Assembly: GCA_965198235.1 (NCBI GenBank)
Contig: OZ240248.1
Span: 4,998,881-5,062,880 of the forward strand
Direction of reading: 5' to 3'
From: Candidatus Poribacteria bacterium
GTDB taxonomy: Bacteria; Poribacteria; WGA-4E; WGA-3G
Length of the DNA stretch: 64,000 nt
The notes beneath the pieces were generated by a model. It was not told the DNA's origin. It saw only the letters and a list, made by a program, of their open reading frames with translations, and searched no databases. The position numbers and the translations under genes are program-made. This document shows, one piece after another, positions 36,924 to 50,747 of this stretch. Position 1 is the first letter of the stretch, and every line of letters begins with the position of its first letter.

Positions 36924-38270
36924 TTACACCCACGAAGATCCTAACTCGTGCACCTTCAATGATACTATAGTTACTGGATTTCCCTCCGTGTAGATTCCGA
37001 TATCTGCGTTCTCCTGATCTGGGAGGAAATAGGATGTCATTGAGAGCTTACCATCGTCTCCGAATGCTTCGATAGAAATACGGTCGACTAAAATTTGCAA
37101 GCGGATTTTCCCATTTTGTGGCGCGAGGGGTCCGCTCTTTTCTAAGAATGTTAGTTGCTGCGATTCAACATCGTAACGGACATCCTGCCCGCGAATTTTG
37201 AAACCAACGGCGGTAGCATCGTTCAGGGCTATTTCAGCACGGATGTCGAACAACTCACCCGTCAGTCCAGAAAGCGGATCTTCATCCGGCTTGAGCGGGA
37301 GATCGCTCCACGCGTGCGTATACATGTGGATATTTTCGATCTCTGAGACCGGTTCTCGATGTAGACGTATACCTTCTGGAGTCGTCCGAAGGGTCAACTT
37401 GCACGGAAAGCTCATCTGTTGATTAAAAGGCATATCCGGTGGGTTACTGCCACTCATCCAAGCGATTTGAATACGTCTGCCATCGGATTCTGGGACATCG
37501 CTCCATGTTTGCGCTGCATAGAAGTTGGCACCGTAGTCAGAGCGTTGTGCGTCCCTTTCCGGAGTAAAGGTCGTTCCATCGAAATTACCGACGTAATATT
37601 TCCCTGCCGCACCCCAGAAAACCCATTTGGTATTATCGGGATCACCGTCAACGGGAAGCTCAAAGATGTCGGGGCATTCTGTGTCGGGAATCTGTAAGTC
37701 GGATAACCGTGTCCACTCCTTAAGGTTTGTCGAACCGAATAAGGTGTAGTCATTTTGGTCAAGATAGAGAGCCATCACCCACTTTTGCGTCGGTTCGTGC
37801 CAGATCACCTTGGGGTCGCGGTTACTCCCGACAAGATGTTCAATCACGGGATTCCCTTCATATTTTGTCCAACTTCGTCCGCGATCGTTGCTGTAGGCGA
37901 TACTTTGTGTAAATGGAACCTCTTTCGGAGCGTGGCTGCCTGCCGACGTGTAAAAATTGACGAGTACCGCCTCGTCGCCGGTCTGAAAACCACCGGTATT
38001 CTTCCAGTCCACGACACCAGAGCCGGAGAAGATTGTACCGAGTTCATCTGGATGGAGGGCATGCGGAAGTTGCTTCCAGTGGACGAGGTCTGTGCTGACA
38101 GCGTGTCCCCAGGTCATATTGCCCCAATCGATACCGGATGGGTTGTGTTGGAAGAAGAGGTGAAATTCGCCTTTGTAGTGGATTAAACCGTTCGGGTCGT
38201 TAGTCCAATTGGTTTTCGGTGTAAAGTGGAACTGTGGACGATACGCTTCCTTGTAAGCCGTTTGAATCAT
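36924..38270 (-). CDS. Glycoside hydrolase family 32 (fructan/sucrose beta-fructosidase)
   Basis: WTNDPNGL (nucleophile Asp), RDP, and an EC(P)D-type motif (TECPDIFEL). Confidence 0.9.
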   Translation of the reverse strand: MIQTAYKEAYRPQFHFTPKTNWTNDPNGLIHYKGEFHLFFQHNPSGIDWGNMTWGHAVSTDLVHWKQLPHALHPDELGTIFSGSGVVDWKNTGGFQTGDEAVLVNFYTSAGSHAPKEVPFTQSIAYSNDRGRSWTKYEGNPVIEHLVGSNRDPKVIWHEPTQKWVMALYLDQNDYTLFGSTNLKEWTRLSDLQIPDTECPDIFELPVDGDPDNTKWVFWGAAGKYYVGNFDGTTFTPERDAQRSDYGANFYAAQTWSDVPESDGRRIQIAWMSGSNPPDMPFNQQMSFPCKLTLRTTPEGIRLHREPVSEIENIHMYTHAWSDLPLKPDEDPLSGLTGELFDIRAEIALNDATAVGFKIRGQDVRYDVESQQLTFLEKSGPLAPQNGKIRLQILVDRISIEAFGDDGKLSMTSYFLPDQENADIGIYTEGNPVTIVSLKVHELGSSWV

Positions 38271-38416
38271 TAACTATTTCCTTTCCGTTTTGAAAATGTA
38301 AAGAGATACGCGCCTTTTTCGCTGTTTTGCACACTATTCTATGCATGTTTTTTATTTTGTCAAGTGTGCCTTCTTGTTCTTTGAGACCATTTAGTCTTCC
38401 CTATTATAAGCCCAAC

Positions 38417-38490
38417 GGTTCAGGGAAACTATTTATTGCCAATCAACACGCATTAAGGAACGTGCGATGAATCGCACGACTACAAACACA
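38417..38490 (+). repeat. Intergenic structured repeat, copy c
   Basis: GGTTC-AGGGAAACTATTTATTGCC..GAACGTGCGATGAATCGCACGACTACAAACACA. Lacks the GTAGT of copies a and b. Confidence 0.6.
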
Positions 38491-38645
38491 CTCGACGGAT
38501 AGCCTCTAATCCGCTGACCTTTGTGAAGGTGCATCCGAAAATGTGTATGAGTGGTAAAATTGAATCACTTTACTTACCCGACACTTTTCGCGGTAAAATT
38601 TCCGTGGAACCTGAAGCGGAATAGCTGCAGTAACGGAGGCAGATA

Positions 38646-40187
38646 GTGATAAACCTTTGTAATGTCCTAAATAGTTCGATACGTCTACAGGTGCAGGCAC
38701 ATTGGGAACCGATTGCGGATTCTACGTTTCGTATGCACAAGACATCGCCAGAACACGTTGAACTCTTCGATCTGTCACCAAACCATCCTGTCAAAGAATA
38801 CAGGACAGACGCTTTCAAGGCATTTCTTCCGTCATCAACTGTAGGGGTGGGTGATGTTTGGGAACTTGATCCGAACAGTGTTGTCTCTTTCCTGCGCCAG
38901 TTTCATTCCGGTGTGACCACACCCGTATATCACGGTGCGGAGGGTGCGTTCGCCTGCTTACGTGCTTTTTCGTCAGTTTACGCTGAGATTGTTTTCCGAA
39001 TTCATGCGGACTTCACGTTGGAAAGCGTCGCTTATGAGAAGTGGCGTGCCGCCAACGCCTCGGAGGACGACGATAATAAATCCCGTTTTGTCCCCTCCCA
39101 TTTCGTCGGACGATTGTTAATCAATTTGAAAGAAGGAACGGTTCGGGTGTTTTCGCTCTATCTGCCGGCACGCAATAGTAACGTTGTCATCAGTGCTTTT
39201 GGCGGTATTGATATGGTTTATGTGCCGCGTATGGAACTCCTCGCTACGGACGAGACCGACAAAGACGAGATCGCGTGGGATGCTGCTATTACAACGGAAG
39301 AGGCACACCGGATGTTGGAATTGAAGTTCTATAAATTCGCTGAGATTGATTGGCTACCGATTGATGAGGCAGTTGCACAGGCGAAAGCGACCAATCGTCC
39401 GATCCATGCAATCCTCGTCTGGGGGTGTTTAGACGATGAATCCTGCTGAGCGAACGGCAAATATTTGAGGGCGGGTCCGCTCTCCGATTCAGAAGTGATA
39501 ACAACGCTCAACGAGAAGTTTGTCAATACATGGGTGCTCCTCCGGGAATTGCCAGAACTAATAGGTGGTGCGAAAGGCGAGGCGGTCAGCCTCGTCGCAA
39601 AAGAGATAAAACGCCACTACACTGACTCTGTAGATATTCTGGCACTCACCCCCGATGCGGAAGTTATCATGCATCAGCCGGAGATGGCTCTACCGTACAG
39701 GAACCAGGCGCAAGCGTATCTAAAAGTGTTACAGCATGCTGTGGACGCATTTGAAGGGAGACGCACCCGTGTAGGCAACGCGTCAAAATTAGATCGGAAC
39801 CCGATCAGCTTGGGGACGGAGTTGATGGAGGTTTTACACGTTTTTAGCACATCCGACACCAATACCCCGACTTACACAGTTATTGAAATTGATACGACAC
39901 CGTTTGAACGCGGTGGGATCCTCCACATTGAAATACATGTGGGTGAGAACAGGTTGGCAGGAACGTTTGAATTGTTTGATGCAGATACCGAAATTTCTAC
40001 AAAAAATGATGAAGATGAAACTCTGGATGGTGCATGGAACGTTTCATCCGGTGGTGTAGGGCACATCTTTCACGATTTTAGTCGGGGTCGGCGTTTCAAG
40101 TTAGTCGCTACAGGGGCAAACAACCAAAAGAGTGTTTCCAATGCTTTTCTGGCACGTGTCTCTATCGTCCCACCGTTTGAAAAATAG
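38646..40187 (+). CDS. Candidate selenoprotein A: unknown N-domain, thioredoxin-like fold with C-U motif (TGA 39447-39449 read as Sec), beta-rich C-domain
   Basis: ORFs 38646-39449 and 39465-40187 share a frame and are separated only by one TGA. The junction reads ..PIHAILVWGCLDDESC-U-ANGKYLRAGPLSDSEVITTLNEKFVNTWV. The second half has no SD or ATG. GTG start after GGAGG, and no signal peptide. Confidence 0.6.
39467..39484 (+). promoter_or_regulatory. SECIS-like hairpin 17 nt downstream of TGA (locus A)
   Basis: GAGGGCG-GGTC-CGCTCTC: 7 bp including one G-U pair, with apical loop GGUC. Confidence 0.45.
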
Positions 40188-40314
40188 CCCATATTATTCC
40201 AACCTACCTGTCAACGCGTGCCTGCCTATCTACGTTTCTATGAAATACATGCCGAATCGGTGGTGTTGTGTCTGTTCTATTAGGTTTGTGTCCGATTTTC
40301 CCTGATTTTTTGAA

Positions 40315-40357
40315 GAATTAGGCAACTTTCTTGTCCGTTACCCGCGTCACTATATAT
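40315..40357 (+). promoter_or_regulatory. ECF-type promoter motif P1 (GAATTAGGCAAC-N18-CGTCACTATATAT)
   Basis: AAC ends at 40326 and CGTC is at 40345-40348. About 120 nt upstream of the PD40 gene. Confidence 0.5.
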
Positions 40358-40477
40358 TGATATGGGAATCTACGCGAACAGAAACTTTCCGCGGGGAGGG
40401 TGTTTACATAGATATTTCCCGTAATTTAGTGTCGGGTAAAATCAAACATCAAGACTCATTTTAGTAGGAGGCACCCT

Positions 40478-41518
40478 ATGAAACATAAGTCGGTTTCTCC
40501 TTTTTTAGGAGTTGGAGGCTGCACCAAATTTCTAATATTCAGTTATGCTATCAGTGCCCTACTCATGTTCAGCGGCAGCACTGCTGTATGGGCAAAAGCC
40601 CCGGAGACAGCGAAAATTACATTTATGTCAAAGCGGGACGGTAACGCTGAGATCTATATCATGAACCCCGACGGGAGTGAGCAAGTCAATCTCACCCAAC
40701 ATCGTGCAGCCGATTATACACCAGCCTGGTCGCCAAACGGGAAACAGATATTGTTCAGCTCAGATCGAGATGGAATTTTTGATTTGTATCTTATGGACGC
40801 AGATGGCACAAATGTCCGGAAGGTGTTCGCAAGCAGCAAATACAGATGGGAGCCTGCCTGGTCGCCCGATGGTAAACGAATTGCCTATGCACAAGGAGAT
40901 CCAGGAAAGGCAAAACTACAGTTTGGGTTACGATTTGTCCCTTACGCCGATCTCACACTTTACATCGCAACACTAAATGGAGACTCCGTTGAGAAATTGA
41001 CGGATGGATTTGGTCCGAGTTGGTCTCCTGATGGACACGAGATAGCCTTTGTGGTGGGTGGTCGCAAAAGTACACTACTGGGTATTTACGACTTGAGGAA
41101 ACGTTCCCAAAAAACGCTCATCTCAAAGAAGATGCCGTGGATATTTGATCCCAGCTGGTCTGCACAGGGTGACAGAATAGCTTTCGCGAAACTCGAGGGT
41201 GCTGCGTTTGATGCACAAGGTTTTCTTAGGTTTAAGAAGGGTACGATTTACACCATAGATAGTGCTGGGGGTGGACTTCATCAGATTACCGACGAGAACT
41301 CTTCTGACCCAACCTGGTCCCCAGATGGCAGCGAACTCATTTACAACTCTCGGGTGGGTTTTTCGCAACTCTTCAGAACGGGCTTGAACGGCGACAATCC
41401 AACACAACTGACGCATGACGGAAGTAATTTGAGTCCAGATTGGTTTGACCCCTTTTATAGCGTTTCGCCGTCGGCGCAATTGTTAACGACGATGTGGGGA
41501 AAAATCAAAGTGGATTAA
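40478..41518 (+). CDS. Exported PD40/TolB-like beta-propeller protein with TTW-type tail
   Basis: Signal peptide. Repeated (P)xWSPDG/NG blades. Tail [15 protein letters not shown]. Confidence 0.8.
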
Positions 41519-41607
41519 GTTAACTATAAATCGTTCCAGATTCAGGGCAGTGAATGCCTTTTGCTTCCAATTGTCAAAATTTATTCCCAGATTTTCATTT
41601 TTTTTCA

Positions 41608-41650
41608 GAATTAGGCAACCGTTTTTCCGATCCTCCGCGTCACTATATAT
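41608..41650 (+). promoter_or_regulatory. ECF-type promoter motif P2
   Basis: GAATTAGGCAACC..CCGCGTCACTATATAT. AAC ends at 41619 and CGTC is at 41638-41641 (18-nt spacer). Confidence 0.5.
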
Positions 41651-41714
41651 CAACACGATATTTGTGTGACAAATTTTGGAAGATTCAAATGACTCCATAG
41701 GAGGAAGCGAAAAC

Positions 41715-42536
41715 ATGTTACGGACATTTACTGCTGCTTTTTCGAGTGTCATTATGCTATTGCTGGCAGCTTCTGCCAACGCGGGTTTGGATGAAGATCT
41801 CGTTTTTTATCTGACCTTTGATAACGTTAAAAATCAGACGATTATTGATGAATCTGGCAATGGTCTTGATGCAGAAATACTTGAGCATGTCGAGATTGTC
41901 AAGGGTAAATATGGAGATGCAATCCGTCTTAAAGGTCAAAGCGGGGATTGCGTTAATATCCCTGCTCAAGAGAAATTGAAAGTTATAGGCGAGATAACAA
42001 TGATGGCATGGATTTATTCTCCAGAAACATGGAACAACGAGAAGATGCATTGGCTGGAAAAAGATTGTCATTTCGTTGTTCCGATTGGTTGGGCGCACTG
42101 TTACGGTATCGCTGGTGTTGATGTCGGTAACGGACCAGAAATCTTTTTGTTTTTGGGATCACAGGTAGAGGGGAAATGGGACCGGCAGGAGTTCAGAACT
42201 CCACATAAAATGGGCGAAAAAAAATGGCATCACGTTGTCGGAAGTTACGATGGCGAAACCATGAAAATCTATGTGGATGGTACAGTCATAGGGGAAGAAA
42301 AGAAAAAATTCAATTTCTTTGGAGACAATGACGCGGACGTTCGGATCGGATGTGCAAAAGATGTCCCCCACCTTACATTCACAAACGGCTCTATTGATGA
42401 AGCTGCGGTCTGGCAACGAGCACTGAGTGATGATGAAATTAAACAAGCCATGACAGGGAACTTTCTCGCTGTTTCGCCGAGCGATAAAGTGGCGACGACT
42501 TGGGCGGATATGAAAAGAAGAGCAGTCGTTCCTTAA
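41715..42536 (+). CDS. Exported LamG-like domain protein with TTW-type tail
   Basis: Start set to the ATG at 41715 by comparison with the paralog at 43790 (RBS AGGAGGA). LVFYLTFDNVKNQT..DESGNG and IDEAAVWQRALSDDEIKQAM. Tail SDKVATTWADMKRRAVVP. Confidence 0.75.
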   Translation: MLRTFTAAFSSVIMLLLAASANAGLDEDLVFYLTFDNVKNQTIIDESGNGLDAEILEHVEIVKGKYGDAIRLKGQSGDCVNIPAQEKLKVIGEITMMAWIYSPETWNNEKMHWLEKDCHFVVPIGWAHCYGIAGVDVGNGPEIFLFLGSQVEGKWDRQEFRTPHKMGEKKWHHVVGSYDGETMKIYVDGTVIGEEKKKFNFFGDNDADVRIGCAKDVPHLTFTNGSIDEAAVWQRALSDDEIKQAMTGNFLAVSPSDKVATTWADMKRRAVVP

Positions 42537-42579
42537 CGGCTACCTGCAAAGTCAGAATTTCCCCATAAAGGAATGTAGG

Positions 42580-43602
42580 ATGAAAACAATACGGTTGTTA
42601 GTTTTTGCCATATTGAACATATTGATGCTGAACGTAAGCGTTTGCCTCGCTTTCGCAACAGCACCCACAACCGCCAAAATTCTGTTCACCTCTTCACGGG
42701 ACGGCAATTATGAGGTCTACATCATGAATCCGGACGGTAGTGAACAGGTGAATTTAACACAACATCGCGCAAATGATTTTCAAGCCGTATGGTCCCCCAC
42801 TGGGGAGCAGATTCTTTTTGTCTCCGATCGCGATGGCGGCATCCGAGACTTGTATCTGATGGACCCCAGTGGATCCAATGTCCGACGCGTTTTCACGAGG
42901 AAACGAAAGTCTTATAGGGATTCTCCGACGTGGGCACCCGATGGCAACCAGATTGCTTACGTACACCTGAATTGGAACGGTGTCAGGTTCCATATCTACG
43001 TTGCAATCTTGGGTAAACAAAAAGAGGAACACCTCGTTGAGGGTAGACGTCCGACGTGGTCACCCGATGGAACGAAAATAGCATATATGTCTTATATTGT
43101 AGATACCTGCCGAATTGCTCTTATTGACCCCCACACACGAAGGCAAAAACACCTCCTATCGAGGAAAGCAACGCCTTGGCAAAATCATCCATTTTGGTCG
43201 GCTACGGGGAGCAAACTCGCTTTTTCTTGGAATAAGAATCCGTTACCGCGCCTTTTGCCGGGTGATCGTTTCCCATCCGTATGGCTGGATAAGGAGACAA
43301 TCTATATTGTGAACAGCGACGGGACCGATCTCCGAGAACTTCTGGATGAAGCTGGGCCCAGAGCACAGTATCCAGTGTTGTCGCCAGACGGGAAAGAGGT
43401 ACTTTATACACAAGAAATTAAGGGTCGCCTACAAATTTTCAAACTTGATGTACACAGTGCCACTCGGGCACAGTTGACAAATATCGGGCGAGTCTTTGAG
43501 GCGAATTTCGGAGGGGATTGGTTCGATCCTGTGTATTCGTTGCCTGTTTCGCCACAATCGCGACTGCTAAGCACAGTATGGGGAAAAGTAAAAAAGAAAT
43601 AG
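42580..43602 (+). CDS. Exported PD40/TolB-like beta-propeller protein with TTW-type tail (paralog)
   Basis: Signal peptide and WSP(T/D)G repeats. Tail QSRLLSTVWGKVKKK. Confidence 0.8.
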   Translation: MKTIRLLVFAILNILMLNVSVCLAFATAPTTAKILFTSSRDGNYEVYIMNPDGSEQVNLTQHRANDFQAVWSPTGEQILFVSDRDGGIRDLYLMDPSGSNVRRVFTRKRKSYRDSPTWAPDGNQIAYVHLNWNGVRFHIYVAILGKQKEEHLVEGRRPTWSPDGTKIAYMSYIVDTCRIALIDPHTRRQKHLLSRKATPWQNHPFWSATGSKLAFSWNKNPLPRLLPGDRFPSVWLDKETIYIVNSDGTDLRELLDEAGPRAQYPVLSPDGKEVLYTQEIKGRLQIFKLDVHSATRAQLTNIGRVFEANFGGDWFDPVYSLPVSPQSRLLSTVWGKVKKK

Positions 43603-43682
43603 TGTCATAGGTAGAATCACCATGAAACTGCTGTGTTATGCACGTTTTCCGCTTTGTGTATCATATTTTCTTTATGTTTGCA

Positions 43683-43725
43683 GAATTAGGCAACCGTTTT
43701 GTCTGTCTCCCGCGTCATTATATAT
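43683..43725 (+). promoter_or_regulatory. ECF-type promoter motif P3
   Basis: GAATTAGGCAACC..CCGCGTCATTATATAT. CGTC is at 43713-43716 with an 18-nt spacer. The downstream leader is nearly identical to that after P2. Confidence 0.5.
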
Positions 43726-43789
43726 CGATACGATAGCTGTGTGACAAATTTTAGAAAGTTCAAATGACTCTATAGGAGGAACAGAAAAC

Positions 43790-44611
43790 ATGTTACGGAC
43801 ATTTATTGCTGCTTTTTCGAGTGTCGTTATACTGTTGTTGGCAGCTCCTGCCAACGCAGGTTTGAATGAGAAACTCGTTTTTTATCTGACGTTTGATAAT
43901 GTTAAAGATCAGACAGTTGTTGACGAATCTGGGAATGGTCAGGACGCAGAGATACTTGAGAACACCGAGATTGTCAGGGGCAAATATGGGAATGCCATTC
44001 ATATTACAGATGATGGTCAGGATTGCGTCAGTATTCCTTCTCAGGAAAAACTGAAAATTACAAGCGAAATAACAATGATGACCTGGATTTATTATCAAGA
44101 AACATGGAAAGGCAAAAGGATGTTGCATTGGCTTGATAAAGGCTGCCATTCGGGAGACGGTTGGGCTGGAACTTACGGTATCGGCAGTTCCGATATCGGT
44201 AACGGACCAGAGATTGTGTTGTTTTTCGGGTCGCGGGAGAAACAGGGGATTACGGACCGGCATGAATTCGCAGTTCTACACAAAATGGGTGTTCAAAAAT
44301 GGCATCATGTTGCTGGGAGCTACGATGGGAAAACCATGAAAATTTATTTAGATGGTAAAGTCATAGGTGCGGAAAAGAAGAATTTCAATCTCTTTGGTGG
44401 TAATAACGTGAACCTCAGGATCGGATGCGCAAAAAACAGCCCGCAGTATGCATTTGCCAACGGTTCTATTGACGAAGCCGCAGTCTGGCAACGAGCATTG
44501 AGTGATGATGAAATCAAGCAGGCGATGGTAGGGGACTTCCTCGCTGTTTCACCGAGTGATAAAGTTGCAACGACTTGGGCGGATGTGAAAAAGAGGATGA
44601 TAGCCCGTTAG
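43790..44611 (+). CDS. Exported LamG-like domain protein with TTW-type tail (paralog of 41715-42536)
   Basis: About 70% identical by eye to 41715-42536. Tail SDKVATTWADVKKRMIAR. Confidence 0.75.
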   Translation: MLRTFIAAFSSVVILLLAAPANAGLNEKLVFYLTFDNVKDQTVVDESGNGQDAEILENTEIVRGKYGNAIHITDDGQDCVSIPSQEKLKITSEITMMTWIYYQETWKGKRMLHWLDKGCHSGDGWAGTYGIGSSDIGNGPEIVLFFGSREKQGITDRHEFAVLHKMGVQKWHHVAGSYDGKTMKIYLDGKVIGAEKKNFNLFGGNNVNLRIGCAKNSPQYAFANGSIDEAAVWQRALSDDEIKQAMVGDFLAVSPSDKVATTWADVKKRMIAR

Positions 44612-44724
44612 CGGGTTTCTGGAAAGTGAGAATGCTATCACCCTTATTGATGCTTCAAAATCCTGTAAGTGATAATGAAGCGGAATATTTAAGCATTGTT
44701 ATTTAAGGTATGTGCACCTTTGCA

Positions 44725-44767
44725 GAATTAGGCAACCGTTTTGTTTGTTCCCCGCGTCACTATATAT
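44725..44767 (+). promoter_or_regulatory. ECF-type promoter motif P4 (upstream of the selenoprotein B / ECF sigma unit)
   Basis: GAATTAGGCAACC..CCCGCGTCACTATATAT. CGTC is at 44755-44758 with an 18-nt spacer. The following GAATCTACGCGAA is shared with P1. Confidence 0.45.
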
Positions 44768-44908
44768 CGAGATTAGAATCTACGCGAAGAACAACTTTTT
44801 GTATAAGTGTTGTTTGCGTAGAATGTTCTTGTTAATTGCTATAACGTGAGTTCAATATGAGAAATTGGTTCACTATATAGGTCGTGTTGAACAAAAAGGG
44901 ACATAACA

Positions 44909-45037
44909 CCCAAGATGCATATTTTGCTCCGTAGGAGCAACATGTCTATAGCAGTCGTCCGACACGACGTTTCCGCGCCGTAGGTGCGGTATGTAGTATC
45001 ACCAGAGATAGCTCCGCTGGGAGTGCGAGTACTTGGG
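44909..45037 (+). repeat. Cluster of four short GC-rich hairpins enclosed by CCCAAG/CTTGGG
   Basis: GCTCC-GTA-GGAGC (44926-38), GTCGT-ccgac-ACGAC (44954-68), CCGCGCC-GTA-GGTGCGG (44973-89), GCTCC-gctg-GGAGT (45011-24). The outer pairing is 44909-14 with 45032-37. Confidence 0.4.
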
Positions 45038-45186
45038 CATCGGGTTTTCTATTCTCACTGCGAAGCAATAGTACTGCTCTGGAGCGATGGAATTTGTCCG
45101 TCACCTGCTTGGAATAGGCGTGATATATCCTGTCGAATCTTTCTAATCTTTATGTCAACTCCACGTTACTATAAGGAGATTTGAAG

Positions 45187-46866
45187 ATGAAAATCTTAAC
45201 CGTTGGGTTTCTTATTCTGGTAATGATGAGTGGAGTGCTGAATGCCGATAACCACTCAACAACTCACAACAAAATTACACTGAACCTTGACGGGACCCCA
45301 GAAGTATCTGTCAAAGGCTTCATTGCTCCGATTGAATATACACAATACAATTTCCATGTGGAGTGGGATGAACTGGCAAATCTGCGGGTTGCTGAGCCGG
45401 AGAAGCGGTATTCTGCATCGGTTTTCCATGCCTTTCTGCCCTCCGAAGCGGTTTCTGTAGGCGATCTCTGGCAGATTGAGGAAGAGGGGGTGCTAGAATT
45501 ACTAAGGCAACTGAACCCCAATCCGAGGCTGGACCTGGACATCAATATGGGAGATTCCCGTGGACTGTGGGCATGTCTGCGCGCCTACAATGATGAATTT
45601 GCTAAGATTGTGTTCCGCATCCATGCAGAATTCGTCTTAAACGATGGTCGGTTCACTCCATCTCAGTTTACAGGACATCTTGTTATTGATCGAATTAGAG
45701 AGAGGATTGCCTCCTTCAAGATGTATGTTCCTGAAGGTGTACTGAATTTTGATGTCGGGCGAAACAGTATCGGAGCTATAGATGTCGGTTTTTGCCCGCA
45801 AATGGAACTCCGTGCTAAGGCACCAGAAGTGGTATCGGACATCAAGTTTGCGGAGTCCATCACCCAAGAAGCGGCTGAGCGGGTGCTGATACTGCGTTTC
45901 TACAGATCGCAACAAATCAACTGGGTGTCTCTGGAAGAAGCGTTAGAGACGGCACCGGCGCAACGAAAACCTGTTCATGTTGTTTCGATAGATGGACCGC
46001 TTGCGGATGAGTCGTGCTGAGGGAGTGGCAAAACTCTGAGGGCAGTTGTCCTCTCTGACGATAAAATTATAGAGTTCTTGAACGAAAACTTTGTTAACAC
46101 ATGGGTGCCGAATTCTGAATTAGGGCGCGTCTCCAGTTTGCGGGAGCCGATTGACAAGAGACGCGAGCGCGAAGGTAAAACGTTTGACACAAGCCACGCC
46201 TTGGCACAAGCAATTATAAAGGGTTGGAAAGAGGGGTCGCCTGTGGATTGTCTGGTTATCTCGCCGGAGTTTGAAGTGATGGGTAGGCAACCTGTCAACG
46301 AAATCGGGTGGTCCAACGGAGTAGCATTTTACATGAATTTCCTCCAAGAGTCCTTAGAGGGGAAACTACCAGGGTTCGGTGAGGCCGCCTCGAAACCTTT
46401 ACCGAAACCTAGTTCAGAGTCTTACTCTGGATTAGGTGCTGTTGTGCCAGAGGATTTAAAAGTTATACTCACCCGTGAAAAGCCCCAGCAGGAAGTTCTC
46501 AGCATTTTCCGGACACCAGAATCCGGCTATCAAGATTATACTGTCGTTGAAATTGATACGACAGCGTTTAAAGGCGGCGGTATGCTTACTATTGATATCT
46601 TAGTAGGAAGTGCTGAATCCAAAGGCTCGTTCGATCTTTATGATGGTGACACTGAACTTCCAACACAAGGTATGCCTCGCGGCGCGCTTACCTCTGCGTG
46701 GGATGTTCCTCCCGGTAAAAGAGGAACAATCAAGTATCGTTTTGACCGGGGTAAAGTTTTTAAGTTAGGAGCTACAGGCAGTTGGTTCAGTAAGGAAGGG
46801 AACATCAACGCTTTTCTCGCTACAATTTCTGTAGCCCCTATGGCGAAAGAAAGTAACGAACATTAA
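45187..46866 (+). CDS. Candidate selenoprotein B (exported): unknown N-domain, thioredoxin-like fold with C-U motif (TGA 46018-46020 read as Sec), beta-rich C-domain
   Basis: ORFs 45181-46020 and 46078-46866 share a frame with only one TGA and no other stop between them. The junction reads ..PVHVVSIDGPLADESC-U-GSGKTLRAVVLSDDKIIEFLNENFVNTWV. ATG at 45187 after AAGGAG. Signal peptide MKILTVGFLILVMMSGVLNA. Confidence 0.6.
46038..46053 (+). promoter_or_regulatory. SECIS-like hairpin 17 nt downstream of TGA (locus B)
   Basis: GAGGGC-AGTT-GTCCTC: 6 bp including one G-U pair, with G and U in the apical loop. Same offset from the TGA as in locus A. Confidence 0.4.
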
Positions 46867-46962
46867 CGCCACTTCCATGCTAATGTGTCTCCCAAAAAAG
46901 TCTGCCCAGCATGGAATATTATTATAGCGTCTAATGAAGTTATCCCGTTCTGGAGGTAACGA

Positions 46963-48291
46963 ATGAAAAACGACGATGTCGAATTAATTCAAGGCAGTCT
47001 TATAGGCGATGAAAAAGCCTTTGCGAAGTTGGTGAGAAAATACCAGAAGCAGGTTCACGCACTCGCGTGGCGGAAAGTAGGCGATTTCCACATCGCTGAA
47101 GAGATTACGCAGGATACCTTTTTAAGGGTTTATAAGAAACTGGCAACGCTGAAGGATCCGCATCGTTTTGCAGGATGGCTTTATAGAATCGCTGCACGCC
47201 AATGCCATGCCTGGCTCAGAAAGAAACGGATGCAAACGCAATCGCTTGAAGACACAGACATCGAACTGATAGAGGGAGGGACGTATTCTCAATACATTGC
47301 CGAGGAGCAGGAGAAAGCTGCGGTAGATGCGCAACGCGATATTGTCCAAAGGTTACTCGCTCGGCTGCAGGAAAGTGAACGCACTGTCGTCACACTCCAC
47401 TACTTCGGGGAGATGACCTGTGAAGAGATTAGCCGATTTTTGGGTGTATCAGAGAGTACCGTTAAGAGTCGGCTCCGCCGTGCGCGGCACCGCTTAAAGA
47501 AGGCGGAACCCATGATCCGAGAGGCACTGGAAGGCTTCCAAGTTAGGGCGAATCTCACCGAGAATATCATGCAAGAAATTGCCCGTATCAAACCTACTCC
47601 ACCGCCCAGTGGTAAACCGTTTGTGCCGTGGACAATTGCCGCCTCAACCCTTGTTCTCGTTGTGATGGCACTTGGAGCAAGTAGTCAGTACTTAACACGT
47701 TTCCAACAACCTTACAATTTTGATGCCACATCCGAAATGACAGTAGAACTCATTGACACGCCTATGGTTCTGAATCTCGCATCGAAACCGGATGTGCGGA
47801 CCCAAGCCGGTAAATCTGTGACACCGAGTAAAGGCGACGGACATACCCCGAGCACAAATCAATCAGAATATGTGCCGAGATTTCTTTCTGCCCAAGCAAA
47901 GAACGTCGTGCTTGATAATAAACAGCCTTCGCAGGATGTTTTGAGCATTTTCCAAACACCGGCGGCGGGCTATCAAGACTACACTGTCATTGAGATTGAT
48001 ACGACGGCATTTAAAGATGGCGGCACGGTCACTATCGACCTTTGGATTGGGAGCGCAGAGGCTGCTGGTGCTTTCATTCTGTTTACAAGCGACAGCGAAA
48101 TCCCCACAGACAGTATGCCTAAGGTTATACTCACCTCAGCATCAGGAATCATACCCGGTAAATCAGGGCGGATCACGCACCGTTTTGACGAAGGCACACG
48201 CTTTAAGTTAGGAGCTACCGGTAATTCGTTCAGTGGGGAAGGGAAGGTCAATTCCTTTCTCGCAAAAATCTCTATAGACGCTACGTTGTGA
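46963..48291 (+). CDS. ECF sigma factor fused via one TM helix to an extracytoplasmic domain homologous to the selenoprotein C-domain
   Basis: Region 2 (ITQDTFLRVYKKL..FAGWLYRIAARQCHAWLRKK) and region 4 (ERTVVTLHYFGEMTCEEISRFLGVSESTVKSRLRRARHRLKK). TM helix WTIAASTLVLVVMALGASS. C-terminal ..DVLSIFQTPAAGYQDYTVIEIDTTAFKDGG..FKLGATG..NSFLAKISI parallels 46490-46850. Confidence 0.8.
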   Translation: MKNDDVELIQGSLIGDEKAFAKLVRKYQKQVHALAWRKVGDFHIAEEITQDTFLRVYKKLATLKDPHRFAGWLYRIAARQCHAWLRKKRMQTQSLEDTDIELIEGGTYSQYIAEEQEKAAVDAQRDIVQRLLARLQESERTVVTLHYFGEMTCEEISRFLGVSESTVKSRLRRARHRLKKAEPMIREALEGFQVRANLTENIMQEIARIKPTPPPSGKPFVPWTIAASTLVLVVMALGASSQYLTRFQQPYNFDATSEMTVELIDTPMVLNLASKPDVRTQAGKSVTPSKGDGHTPSTNQSEYVPRFLSAQAKNVVLDNKQPSQDVLSIFQTPAAGYQDYTVIEIDTTAFKDGGTVTIDLWIGSAEAAGAFILFTSDSEIPTDSMPKVILTSASGIIPGKSGRITHRFDEGTRFKLGATGNSFSGEGKVNSFLAKISIDATL

Positions 48292-48630
48292 TAATCTTAA
48301 TCCGCGAACTTGTATTGAAACTTTCGCAACTCCTGCCTAATCGCTGTATTTCTCGTTCTGCCGTTTTCTCTCCACTTATTTGACAAAAGGTAAACCCTCC
48401 AGCTCGTCCTACGTTTTAACTTTCCAATATACCGCCAGTAGAATCATTTGTACACTTTGAATCGCAGGAAATCTATGAGGAAATCCCACGAACCTGTATG
48501 TATGAGTTGATTCATGGTATAATTCTACCAATAAATTCGTTTGTCCAAATTTAATCTACATAGGACTTACACAAACACGGATGTCTGGGACTACAAGTGA
48601 GCCTGATTTTTACGTTTTTTCTGAACTTAT

Positions 48631-48658
48631 GCAACCCTTTCACCAGCAAATTGCGTCA
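48631..48658 (+). promoter_or_regulatory. Diverged ECF-type promoter motif P5
   Basis: GCAAC-N18-CGTCA with the same AAC-to-CGTC spacing (48636-48653), about 105 nt upstream of ATG 48768. The flanks are not conserved. Confidence 0.3.
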
Positions 48659-48767
48659 TTTAACAATGACTAACAATGACAAACGGTAGAATTTATCGGA
48701 CAAACAGTGCAATAAACCGAAGAATGGGGACATAGTGCCAAAGTCCTACTCTCCTAAGGAGAAAGCA

Positions 48768-50612
48768 ATGTTAAAGAAATGTTTACCCTTATGCTTCACC
48801 GTGTCGATATTTCTGATAATCCTTCTATTCGCCACTTTCAATGTGGTAGAAGCCCTACCAGATTCATCTAAGGTATCCGAATCGGCACCCGTAGATACAC
48901 CTTCTCAAAAATCTGAAAGCGCACCAGTTCCTGTTCCAGACAACAGTGTTCTGAACCTAATTCCTGAAAAAGCATTAGGCGTTATCTACTGTCCGAGTCT
49001 GCTGGAATTGGATAACAGAATTAACAAGATAGTAACTGAGCTCTCCCCTCAAATCGAGGTCCCCGATGTATCTATGCAGATTTTGAAGAGTATTTTCGGA
49101 GATGCGTTTGAAAGTTTAGCCGATTTTGAAGAAATTGGGTTGGATTTGAACCAAGATTTCGCGGTCTTCATTACCAGTTTGCAGCCACTGCATCTCTCGG
49201 CACTGGGGCATCTAACGGGTCCTAAGGCAATGAAACAGATAATTGAAGCCGAAGGCGGCACACCCTCGCAATATAAAGGCGTAACCTATTGGAGTGCCAG
49301 CGAAGGTAATAAGAGTTTTGCTATTTTGGAGAATATCCTCGTTTTTTCAACGCCTCGCGGGATTTGTGAGAACGTTATTGATACCTATAACGGAGCGGGG
49401 TATGCTATCACACAGAACCCAAATTACACCACTTTTCTTATAGATATTTTGGAGGGTGACGATCAAGTGGGGGTGTGCGTTGATGTTGAAGCCATTATTG
49501 CCACCTTCGATAGTCTGCCTGAAGAGGAATTGGAGTCAATAGTAAACGCTCTCCAAGATGGGGATCCGATATCCAAGTCAATTGCATCCTTCCTTGAAGA
49601 TATACCTGGAGAGGAAATAGGAAGCATTGAGCAGTTCCGATCAATAAACGTCCGGCTGGAGGTAGAGGGAACCGGTGTGCAAATTAAGCCGTCCGTGAAA
49701 TTCAGAAGCGATAGTGAATTTCTGAAAGTCTTGGAAGAAAGGTCTGGTGAATTAACTTTCCTCGACGAACTCCCAAATCGTGCAGCTATGAATGGTGCCG
49801 TTCAAGGTTGCCCACAGTTGCTGGTTGAGCTGAGTAGGTTCTGGTTAGATACTCTTCCCACGGTAACTCCAGAACAACAGGCGCAGCGGGATTTGCTCCT
49901 CAAACAGGTGAAAGATTTTCATGAATCTCTTGCAGATCGATGGAGGGTTTCTTTCGGTTTTGAGGATACGCTTTTACCGACTTATCTGTTTATCTATGAA
50001 CTGAAAGATGAACAGGCTGCCAGGGTCTATATGGATGAGGTGTTTCTGGAACATCTCAGCGATCAAGACGCTTATGCAGGTAAGTCGATCATGCACAACC
50101 GCGTTGAAATTAAAAGTTACATCTTTCCTGATCTCACAGAGGGGCTTCCAGAGGAATTGCCCGAAGAAATCTCTGGTTTGTTGCCCACCAAATGGCACTG
50201 GTATTATGCATTTACCGAAGGGCAGCTCCTTTTCGCAACGGGTACAGGTCCAGAATCAATTCAAATGGCACTTGATAGGAAAGCAGGAAACGAGGCGAAA
50301 TTTTCTGAGCATCCGAGTTATCAAAAACTCGTCGACATATTAGGGACTGACTCCAACATCTTCTGTGCGATATCTCCAGCCATCGCGGCTAAAAACTCTT
50401 TGCCGATGTTTGGGAAGATGGATCCGGACAATGCCGCGGTAATGCAAATACTGGCAGGGATATTCATGAGTCTCCCTGAGAACTATAGTATCGGTTTTTC
50501 CGCCAAAAGAACGGACAATAGCATTGATGCGAAACTGCTCATTGACCTTGGTGACTTCAAGCAGCTTATACAAATGATGGAAATGATGGCTCAAATGAGG
50601 CAGAGGCAATAG
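48768..50612 (+). CDS. Membrane-anchored or exported hypothetical protein (about 614 aa)
   Basis: Start at the ATG at 48768, after AAGGAG. N-terminal hydrophobic helix, then a Ser/Pro-rich linker with the repeat SESAPV. No domain I can name confidently. Confidence 0.6.
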   Translation: MLKKCLPLCFTVSIFLIILLFATFNVVEALPDSSKVSESAPVDTPSQKSESAPVPVPDNSVLNLIPEKALGVIYCPSLLELDNRINKIVTELSPQIEVPDVSMQILKSIFGDAFESLADFEEIGLDLNQDFAVFITSLQPLHLSALGHLTGPKAMKQIIEAEGGTPSQYKGVTYWSASEGNKSFAILENILVFSTPRGICENVIDTYNGAGYAITQNPNYTTFLIDILEGDDQVGVCVDVEAIIATFDSLPEEELESIVNALQDGDPISKSIASFLEDIPGEEIGSIEQFRSINVRLEVEGTGVQIKPSVKFRSDSEFLKVLEERSGELTFLDELPNRAAMNGAVQGCPQLLVELSRFWLDTLPTVTPEQQAQRDLLLKQVKDFHESLADRWRVSFGFEDTLLPTYLFIYELKDEQAARVYMDEVFLEHLSDQDAYAGKSIMHNRVEIKSYIFPDLTEGLPEELPEEISGLLPTKWHWYYAFTEGQLLFATGTGPESIQMALDRKAGNEAKFSEHPSYQKLVDILGTDSNIFCAISPAIAAKNSLPMFGKMDPDNAAVMQILAGIFMSLPENYSIGFSAKRTDNSIDAKLLIDLGDFKQLIQMMEMMAQMRQRQ

Positions 50613-50747
50613 GTTCGTTCTGATTCGGCTGACGATGTTACCCTGGGATTTACGCAGATTAGTGTTATACACTTTACTCTCGCTGGCGAGGTGTTTTTGC
50701 TGGGGTGTTTCTCTCGCCTACCAGTAGAAGGAAATTTCGATTCCCGA

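Follow-up and report, generated by a model that had tools for sequence, protein, structure and literature searches.

Four near-identical motifs in a 64,000-nucleotide stretch of a Candidatus Poribacteria genome (contig OZ240248.1, positions 4,998,881 to 5,062,880, hereafter the window) are rather probably promoters for a Poribacteria-specific family of extracytoplasmic function (ECF, group 4) sigma factors, and the member most probably reading them is the one encoded at 46963-48291 of the window. These sites, P1 to P4, precede genes for exported PD40, LamG and selenocysteine-containing proteins, and P4 is probably the autoregulatory promoter of the operon that ends with the sigma gene itself. 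We infer the cognate factor, and likewise the transcription start, the binding of the sigma and its mode of activation, from the sequence and its conservation across species.

The motif in the window and across Poribacteria

A sequence-only reading of the window had reported four copies of the motif on the + strand, and a pattern search returned exactly these. GGCAAC-N18-CGTCAYTATATAT has four matches, all on the + strand, at 40321-40357, 41614-41650, 43689-43725 and 44731-44767 (from 40315, 41608, 43683 and 44725 if the flanking GAATTA is included), against 0.03 expected from dinucleotide-preserving shuffles, none of which reached four in 100 trials. A mismatch-tolerant scan with spacers of 16-20 nt added a single + strand site, at 48627, with 4 mismatches over 20 scored positions; chance alone would give about 0.2 matches this good (at most four mismatches) over the window. 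The same scan gave two minus-strand matches with five mismatches, which is at chance level. Where 0.14 occurrences of the bare core GCAAC-N18-CGTCA would be expected, the window has five, namely P1 to P5. No further copy was found on either strand anywhere in the 64 kb and none lies 5' of the gene at 38646, as that reading had also stated.

All five sites have the layout claimed for them, that of an ECF promoter, with a -35 element containing AAC, a -10 element containing CGT(C) and a distance between them inside 16-19 nt. P1 (40305-40357, +) consists of a T-tract and GAAGAATTA, the -35 element GGCAAC at 40321-40326, an 18-nt spacer, the -10 element CGTCAC at 40345-40350 and a TATATAT tract, with a transcription start predicted near 40354-40359. 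In P2 (41598-41650, +) the two elements are GGCAAC at 41614-41619 and CGTCAC at 41638-41643, in P3 (43673-43725, +) GGCAAC at 43689-43694 and CGTCAT at 43713-43718, and in P4 (44715-44767, +), the putative autoregulatory promoter, GGCAAC at 44731-44736 and CGTCAC at 44755-44760. Similarity among the five regions sets in abruptly about 15-20 nt before GGCAAC, in the T-tract and CAGAATTA (near -50), and ends about 5 nt past TATATAT, while an alignment of the regions shows the sequence farther upstream to be unrelated. Past this block the likeness is pairwise only, P2 resembling P3 and P1 resembling P4. Each site stands 66-415 nt before a + strand gene with a good ribosome-binding site (RBS).

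The spacer between AAC and CGT is 18 nt at all five sites, so that its reported constancy holds. The doubt that had been raised about its length falls away, since the sigH and sigE promoters of Corynebacterium glutamicum, established by mapping of transcription starts and in vitro transcription, read GGAAC-N17-18-cGTT (PMC10012870), and a spacing of AAC-N18-CGT is therefore not anomalous. Furthermore, orthologous P5 sites and several of the paralogous promoters described below use N17, which suggests that both lengths are tolerated.

Conservation was assessed with the pattern TTAGGCAAC-N18-CGTCAYTATAT in one genome per species (185,579 species genomes). The exact pattern occurred at 99 sites in 88 stretches, and the named records that carry it all belong to Candidatus Poribacteria; the few remaining ones bear just the label "uncultured bacterium," and one of them also encodes an orthologue of the sigma factor. 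Complete genomes hold approximately one to five exact copies each. At every one of the 99 sites with a readable downstream gene, that gene is co-oriented and starts 30-450 nt past the site. The families behind the sites are the selenoprotein (about 40 sites), LamG, PD40, a 500-aa ABC-2-type permease, Reg_prop (a two-component-regulator propeller protein), a TPR lipoprotein and a few others, with no housekeeping gene among them. The "local regulon" first proposed is thus not local only: the motif precedes these families across the phylum, and also dispersed genes such as those for the permease, Reg_prop and the TPR lipoprotein.

The information content is 1.2-2 bits per position in the motif and about 0-0.4 bit in the flanks; conservation extends to the spacer, with the consensus CGTTTTGYC.GTTACCCG, and to CAGAATTA upstream. 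Searches anchored on one half recovered the other. With the -10 half alone, all 85 sites lay on the strand of the sigma gene and 54 had TTAGGCAAC; with the -35 half alone, CGTC stood at N18 in 60 of 65 sites (CGTCA in 58). Because the proteins of the compared species are just 60-90% identical, this non-coding conservation points to selection and not to recency.

P5 (48618-48664, +) is a variant, CTGAACTTATGCAAC-N18-CGTCATTTAACA, placed 105 nt 5' of the ATG (48768) of a gene for a DUF3352 protein; its scored part, TTATGCAAC-N18-CGTCATTTAACA, spans 48627-48664. The suggestion that this weaker copy is real was borne out by the scan of the window and by other species, as sites of the form CTTATGCAAC-N17/18-GCGTCATTTAACAAT precede DUF3352 in related loci L089, L094, L099 and L102, and in L097 and L142 the -10 half alone falls inside the stretch read. 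In eight loci (L089, L090, L092, L094, L097, L099, L102 and L142) the DUF3352 gene follows the sigma gene, as it does here. However, its -35 element (TGCAAC) and the sequence following its -10 element (CGTCATTTAACA) differ from those of P1 to P4 and come closer to the promoters of paralogous sigma genes. P5 belongs to a conserved but distinct sister class, which the same sigma or a paralogue may read.

The sigma factor and its linkage to the motif

The product of 46963-48291 (+, 442 aa) is an ECF sigma factor, as originally called. It matches PF04542 (Sigma70_r2, E 1.1e-15), PF08281 (r4, E 7e-16) and PF07638 (Sigma70_ECF, E 1e-7), scores 98.8 bits against TIGR02937 (cut-off 42.9) and has regions 2 and 4 only, which fits group 4. 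Its nearest solved relative is SigW of Bacillus subtilis (5wuq, E 1.5e-23), and the structures of SigW, sigE and sigH match it at E 1e-23 to 1e-18. NCBIfam places it to superfamily only, and SigW-like models score below their equivalog cut-offs.

Domains sigma-2 and sigma-4 occupy residues 1-190 and are followed by a hydrophobic helix (about 220-244), then by a low-complexity linker and by an all-beta C-terminal domain (312-442). The hydrophobic stretch, FVPWTIAASTLVLVVMALGASSQYL, was read directly from the sequence; in the AlphaFold 2 model residues 224-238 and 241-247 are helical, with low confidence (predicted local distance difference test, pLDDT, below 50). Orthologues retain much of it and the paralogues read have a similar one, so that a membrane helix after sigma-4, the mark of the ECF48, ECF52 and ECF53 fusions, is present as judged from this stretch. 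Residues 181-220 (AEPMIREALEGFQVRANLTENIMQEIARIKPTPPPSGKPF) hold no Cys or His, and hence no zinc finger of the zinc-binding anti-sigma (ZAS) type (HxxxCxxC) precedes the helix. The modelled sigma core is poor (pLDDT about 35-60, from a shallow alignment) and the C-domain alone is usable, with pLDDT mostly 75-90 and two 10-residue blocks in the 60s. This domain resembles beta-sandwich modules of the PPC, collagen-binding, C-CPE, CBM6 and PliG types (target-normalised TM-score 0.5-0.68), while a sequence search of solved structures gave nothing significant for it or for the N-domain of the selenoprotein.

To keep the linkage free of motif ascertainment, orthologous loci were gathered via the sigma protein alone. 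A site with two or fewer mismatches lies upstream on the sigma strand in 47 of these 59 loci, at a median of 2.2 kb before the sigma start. Between the site and the sigma gene stands the selenoprotein gene alone in 31 of the 47 and a PD40 gene plus the selenoprotein gene in 7; of the 12 loci that lack a site, 8 offer less than 4.5 kb of sequence upstream. The claim of autoregulation, that a motif heads the sigma operon, therefore has the same arrangement behind it in most protein-ascertained loci. In orthologues of the window sigma the gene itself has no motif directly before its start and would consequently depend on the promoter of the operon, before the selenoprotein gene, which is P4 in the window.

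Poribacteria genomes also carry arrays of paralogous sigma genes, with which the window sigma has the core, helix and linker in common (sigma core 60-73% identical). Those read are about 940-1,080 aa in total, with large extracytoplasmic extensions, several of them with repeated WD40-like motifs. Tandem arrays of four or five such genes, each with its own promoter variant, occur at L159 6431-19806 and also in L154-L163. About 98 of 111 distinct paralogous genes have a site of their own 24-107 nt before the start, of the form CAGAATTA-[TGCACC / TGCAAC / AGCAAC / TGAAAC / TGAGAC]-N17 or N18-CGTCAC(T/A)A, in which the -10 element does not vary and each class has its own -35 hexamer. The classes also differ in their sigma-4.2 helices: GGCAAC goes with ASTVKSRLRRAR, AGCAAC with ASTIKSRLRRAR, TGCACC with ANTIRSRLRRAQ and TGA[AG]AC with V[GA]AIK[SN]RL[HY]RAR. 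Class-specific promoters paired with class-specific helices are, on these comparisons, the expected picture of a radiating family of autoregulated ECF sigma factors.

Other readings of the sites

Several observations weigh against reading P1 to P4 as ECF promoters of the window sigma. Two loci, L101 and L114, have 10 kb of upstream sequence and no site at four or fewer mismatches; in their clade the selenoprotein genes form long tandem operons, the head of which is possibly more than 8 kb away, as in L106. The correlation between sigma-4.2 helix and -35 class is confounded by phylogeny, that is, by shared descent. The promoters of the paralogues differ by just one or two -35 bases, which makes cross-recognition among them likely. 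The conserved block, including the spacer and CAGAATTA, is about 50 bp long and exceeds the usual contacts of a sigma factor; it may reflect a further factor. In addition, P1 scores 9 of 12 as the sigma-70-type promoter TTGTCC-16-TATATT. Finally, a shorter sigma of 271 aa is found behind the same motif, so that the argument from autoregulation does not single out one sigma. This paralogue is 57-60% identical, has a membrane helix and no sensor domain, and carries the sigma-4.2 helix SVDTIKTRLRRGR. In L002 (2527-6101, minus strand) the order is the TTAGGCAAC motif, LamG, the 271-aa sigma and Reg_prop, and in L043 the motif is followed by the 271-aa sigma.

In the serious rival reading, P1 to P4 would be ECF-type but read by another sigma of the family, either the 271-aa protein, whose units the TTAGGCAAC motif heads in L002 and L043, or a paralogue of the TGCAAC or AGCAAC class, and the window sigma would be a target in a cascade. 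The small distance between the promoter classes and the paralogue-type TGCAAC of P5 are in keeping with it, and overlapping regulons of two ECF sigmas whose promoters are one -35 base apart have been documented (PMC10012870). We nonetheless consider it rather unlikely. Of the 88 motif-bearing stretches, just 2 have the 271-aa sigma downstream of the motif (in L041 and L104 it lies upstream), whereas a sigma of the window type is downstream in more than 20 loci ascertained by the motif and in the 47 of 59 ascertained by the protein. Every other paralogue class has its own distinct variant directly upstream, and the AGCAAC class, nearest in its -35 element, is also nearest to the window sigma in its sigma-4.2 helix. 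Since the 271-aa paralogue is sporadic and the window-type sigma is nearly always linked, we keep the latter as the likeliest cognate factor, although cross-talk or a cascade may also be at work.

A housekeeping promoter of the sigma-70 type (-35 TTGTCY, -10 TATATT), overlapped by a conserved operator for a transcription factor, would account for the match in P1, for the strong conservation of TATATAT and for a block longer than typical ECF promoters. This is improbable. Matches of the sigma-70 type in the region number 21 where 18.9 are expected, which is chance level; the G of the would-be TTG carries about 0.4 bit, compared with 1.4-2 bits at GGCAAC and CGTCAC; and LamG-class sites read TTTTTCCG at the would-be -35 element. 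The motif is neither palindromic nor repeated, unlike usual operators, and a variant of it precedes nearly all of the approximately 100 paralogous sigma genes, the signature of ECF autoregulation. The TATATAT tract could double as a sigma-70 -10 element.

The motif would have no promoter function at all if it were a dispersed repeat or a remnant that hitch-hiked on recent gene duplications. LamG-1 and LamG-2 are paralogous, as are PD40-1 and PD40-2, P2 and P3 are alike in leader and coding sequence, and short-read contigs end near the sites, as they do at repeats. For instance, two public contigs with LamG homologues (L168 and L169, one explicitly from a metagenome) begin 19 and 37 nt 5' of the ATG, and in the LamG-homologue clusters P0158, P0171 and P0227 many members lie on contigs of about 1 kb or less; assemblies probably break there at the repeated promoter and leader. 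The random orientation and position that would mark a repeat element were not seen, however. The sites always point toward a gene start, no copy lies within a convincing coding region, and complete genomes hold only the few exact copies given above. The similarity is sharply bounded at the motif even for non-paralogous genes (P1 with PD40, P4 with the selenoprotein), the motif is nearly base-perfect across species despite protein identities of only 60-80% and diverged flanks, and inspection of the motif by eye gave no terminal inverted repeats. We regard this explanation as very improbable.

A sigma-54 (-24/-12) promoter, with GGCAAC-CGTT-TTGY resembling TGGCAC-N5-TTGC, is scarcely credible and was rejected on its -12 dinucleotide, because GG-N10-GC occurs in 21 of 96 sites (GGCAACCGTTTTGCC) but the GC, near-invariant in sigma-54 promoters, is GT, AC, TC or another pair in the remaining 75 and in all four window copies, and because the invariant CGTCAC would be left unexplained.

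Genes of the cluster and a possible sensing circuit

From 38646 to 50612 every gene of the cluster is on the + strand. Behind P1 lies PD40-1 (40478-41518), an exported beta-propeller (PF07676, E 2.7e-27). P2 precedes LamG-1 (41715-42536), an exported Laminin_G_3 protein (PF13385, E 2.2e-20), and, after a gap of 43 nt without a motif, PD40-2 (42580-43602; PF07676, E 5.7e-29) as the second gene of the unit. LamG-2 (43790-44611; PF13385, E 1.6e-21) stands behind P3. The first gene behind P4 encodes an exported selenoprotein with an in-frame TGA (45187-46866) and the second is the sigma gene, which has no motif of its own, while P5 precedes the exported DUF3352 protein (48768-50612; PF11832, E 8.2e-9). 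Judged by eye, the cluster products other than the sigma have signal-peptide-like N-termini. A diverged selenoprotein paralogue at 38646-40187 has no upstream motif; as called from GTG it also lacks a signal-peptide-like N-terminus, unlike its relatives (MKRNWL...), and it may be N-terminally truncated or start elsewhere.

On this arrangement P1 would drive PD40-1, P2 LamG-1 and PD40-2, P3 LamG-2, and P4 the selenoprotein and sigma genes. The units first proposed for P2 and P4 recur in other species: a unit of motif, LamG and PD40 is also present in L089, L090 and L142, the P4 unit of selenoprotein and sigma genes is that of the orthologous loci described above, and the order of motif and PD40 is kept in, for example, L094, L097, L100 and L117-L119. 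Near the cluster, the only + strand hairpins that resemble terminators are those at 40250-40262, just before P1, and at 50678-50703, just after the DUF3352 gene. With no such hairpin between the units of P1 to P4, read-through across units is possible.

Both selenoproteins have the TGA in the context DESC-U-(G/A)(S/N)GK, a vicinal pair of cysteine and selenocysteine (Cys-Sec). It lies at 46018-46020 in the gene at 45187-46866 (DESC-U-GSGK) and at 39447-39449 in the paralogue, and it is retained in 125 of 128 distinct homologues. A hairpin resembling a selenocysteine insertion sequence, GAGGGCAGKTGTCCTC, begins about 20 nt 3' of the TGA (approximately 46038-46053 in the former gene) and has a compensatory variant, GAGAGC...GCTCTC. 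No Pfam or NCBIfam family matches either half of these proteins. Their C-terminal domain is shared with the sigma factor, the last 125 residues of which have 59% identity with the C-domain of the adjacent selenoprotein and 42% with its counterpart in the upstream paralogue; the homologous domains are encoded at 47896-48288 (sigma residues 312-442), 46444-46863 and 39800-40184.

These features suggest how the system may work. Sigma-4 would contact the -35 element (TTA)GGCAAC and then the CGTTTT tract, sigma-2 would contact the -10 element (G)CGTCAC 18 nt downstream, and transcription would start inside the TATATAT tract. Read-through from the selenoprotein gene into the sigma gene behind P4 would give positive feedback on sigma synthesis, and P1 to P3 would co-induce the exported PD40 and LamG proteins. 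The sigma gene has no anti-sigma gene beside it, and the protein would be tethered to the membrane by its one helix, N-terminus in and C-terminus out, acting without a separate anti-sigma factor. As the tethered sigma has an extracytoplasmic domain, its activity is presumably gated from outside the cytoplasm, either by proteolytic release or by binding of a ligand or partner. By analogy with IutY and ECF52-type fusions (PMC8999054), regulated proteolysis would be the most likely route of activation.

A sensor module common to the sigma and its main targets suggests that they bind the same ligand, or each other, and the 59% identity of the two C-domains makes a sensing loop possible. We propose tentatively, and with some doubt, a product- or substrate-sensing loop in which the tethered sigma would sense the ligand of the selenoproteins, or the selenoproteins themselves, and tune an extracytoplasmic selenium-based redox system without an anti-sigma factor; some eight paralogous sigma-sensors with near-orthogonal promoters would then form a parallel sensory array.

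Promoters of the ECF type and the autoregulation of their sigma factors are textbook knowledge, and much of the present system conforms to it. Like the autoregulated sigH and sigE promoters of C. glutamicum and mycobacteria and sigW of B. subtilis, the sites have a -35 element ending in AAC with a T-rich tract and a -10 element CGT(C), the promoter heads the sigma operon, and the targets are exported or envelope proteins. The distance between AAC and CGT is the 17-18 nt of the sigH and sigE promoters, whereas the B. subtilis sigW consensus is TGAAAC-N16-CGTA, 2 nt shorter in its spacer. The Poribacteria system differs from these in a conserved stretch of about 50 bp that takes in the spacer CGTTTTGYC..GTTACCCG and the upstream CAGAATTA, in having the sigma gene last in its unit with no separate anti-sigma gene, and in the approximately eight paralogue classes that share a near-identical promoter architecture within one genome.

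Fused C-terminal extensions are known from IutY of Pseudomonas putida (ECF243), from ECF48, ECF52 and ECF53 (e.g., SCO4117) and from ECF57 with WD40 (PMC8999054, PMC7826278). The window sigma shares with them a sigma-2/4 core, one membrane helix, an extracytoplasmic domain and the lack of an adjacent anti-sigma gene, and paralogues in related genomes, with extensions of about 700 aa and in some cases repeated WD40-like motifs, recall ECF57. In contrast to ECF48, ECF52 and ECF53, the linker between sigma-4 and the helix has no zinc finger or ZAS; the domain is, unlike those of the known fusions, a small PPC/CBM-like beta-sandwich common to the selenoproteins of the regulon; and the lineage, Poribacteria, is not mentioned in the main text of PMC7826278.

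A sensor module homologous to modules of the controlled proteins also occurs in the sigI-RsgI systems of Clostridium thermocellum, where the ligand is polysaccharide, and this likeness suggests that sensor and targets bind the same ligand here too. There, however, a separate anti-sigma factor carries the sensor and the sigma belongs to the SigI and not the ECF type; the targets in Poribacteria are Cys-Sec proteins.

Poribacteria are uncultivated. Our literature searches found no paper in the library searched that pairs Poribacteria with an ECF sigma factor, and none that treats their transcriptional regulation, and those combining Poribacteria with ECF, sigma factor or selenocysteine gave nothing on this sigma family, the 50-bp promoter or a selenoprotein-centred regulon. 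The proposed circuit is a familiar autoregulated one in a lineage where it had not been described, and it extends a well-understood mechanism and is not a new one. The soluble sigma domain and the 50-bp promoter would make a ready pair for a heterologous host, and the closely related variants of sigma and promoter could inform how ECF specificity diverges. The small, defined regulon comprises exported proteins, namely selenocysteine-containing redox proteins, lectin-like LamG proteins and PD40 propellers, with a possible role at the cell surface.

The predicted leaders fall into classes of their own. The P3-type leader of LamG genes, ACACGA...TATAGGAGG, is conserved in 12 loci. A box, ATCTACGCGAACA, lies about 20 nt past the predicted start at 40368-40413 (P1) and 44778-44823 (P4) and is conserved in many loci (e.g., L091, L095, L100 and L115) in front of genes for selenoproteins and PD40 proteins. 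In most members it can form a stem with an arm farther downstream, TGTT..CGTAGA, with an apical part that varies by species. Folded singly, most members of this P1/P4-type leader show a hairpin, though the mean z is only -1.4, and no consensus structure emerged from RNAalifold run on a MAFFT alignment. Rfam returned no known RNA family in the leaders, either in the whole window at gathering thresholds or in 38000-49000 at E<=1.

The P4 leader is longer in the window than the 100-125 nt or so of its relatives, by about 310 nt of strongly structured sequence (approximately 44868-45165) that follows the conserved leader and precedes the RBS. For the leader as a whole the folding energy is -135 kcal/mol (z = -3.9), and a degenerate RBS-ATG (ATGAGAAATTGGTTCAC..., 44858) precedes the extra sequence. 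A blastx comparison of the insert with all regulon proteins gave no pseudogene remnant, and a blastn search gave no copy, whether in the window or in 167 related loci. Another class of leader, TTGAACGGTCAAATTGTTCTCACCGTTCATTTTCAGCAGTTAGTGAGGAC, follows the motif in L106, L039, L048, L063, L088 and others; it can form two overlapping alternative hairpins, GAACGGT/ACCGTTC and CTCAC/GTGAG, and has an attenuator-like look.

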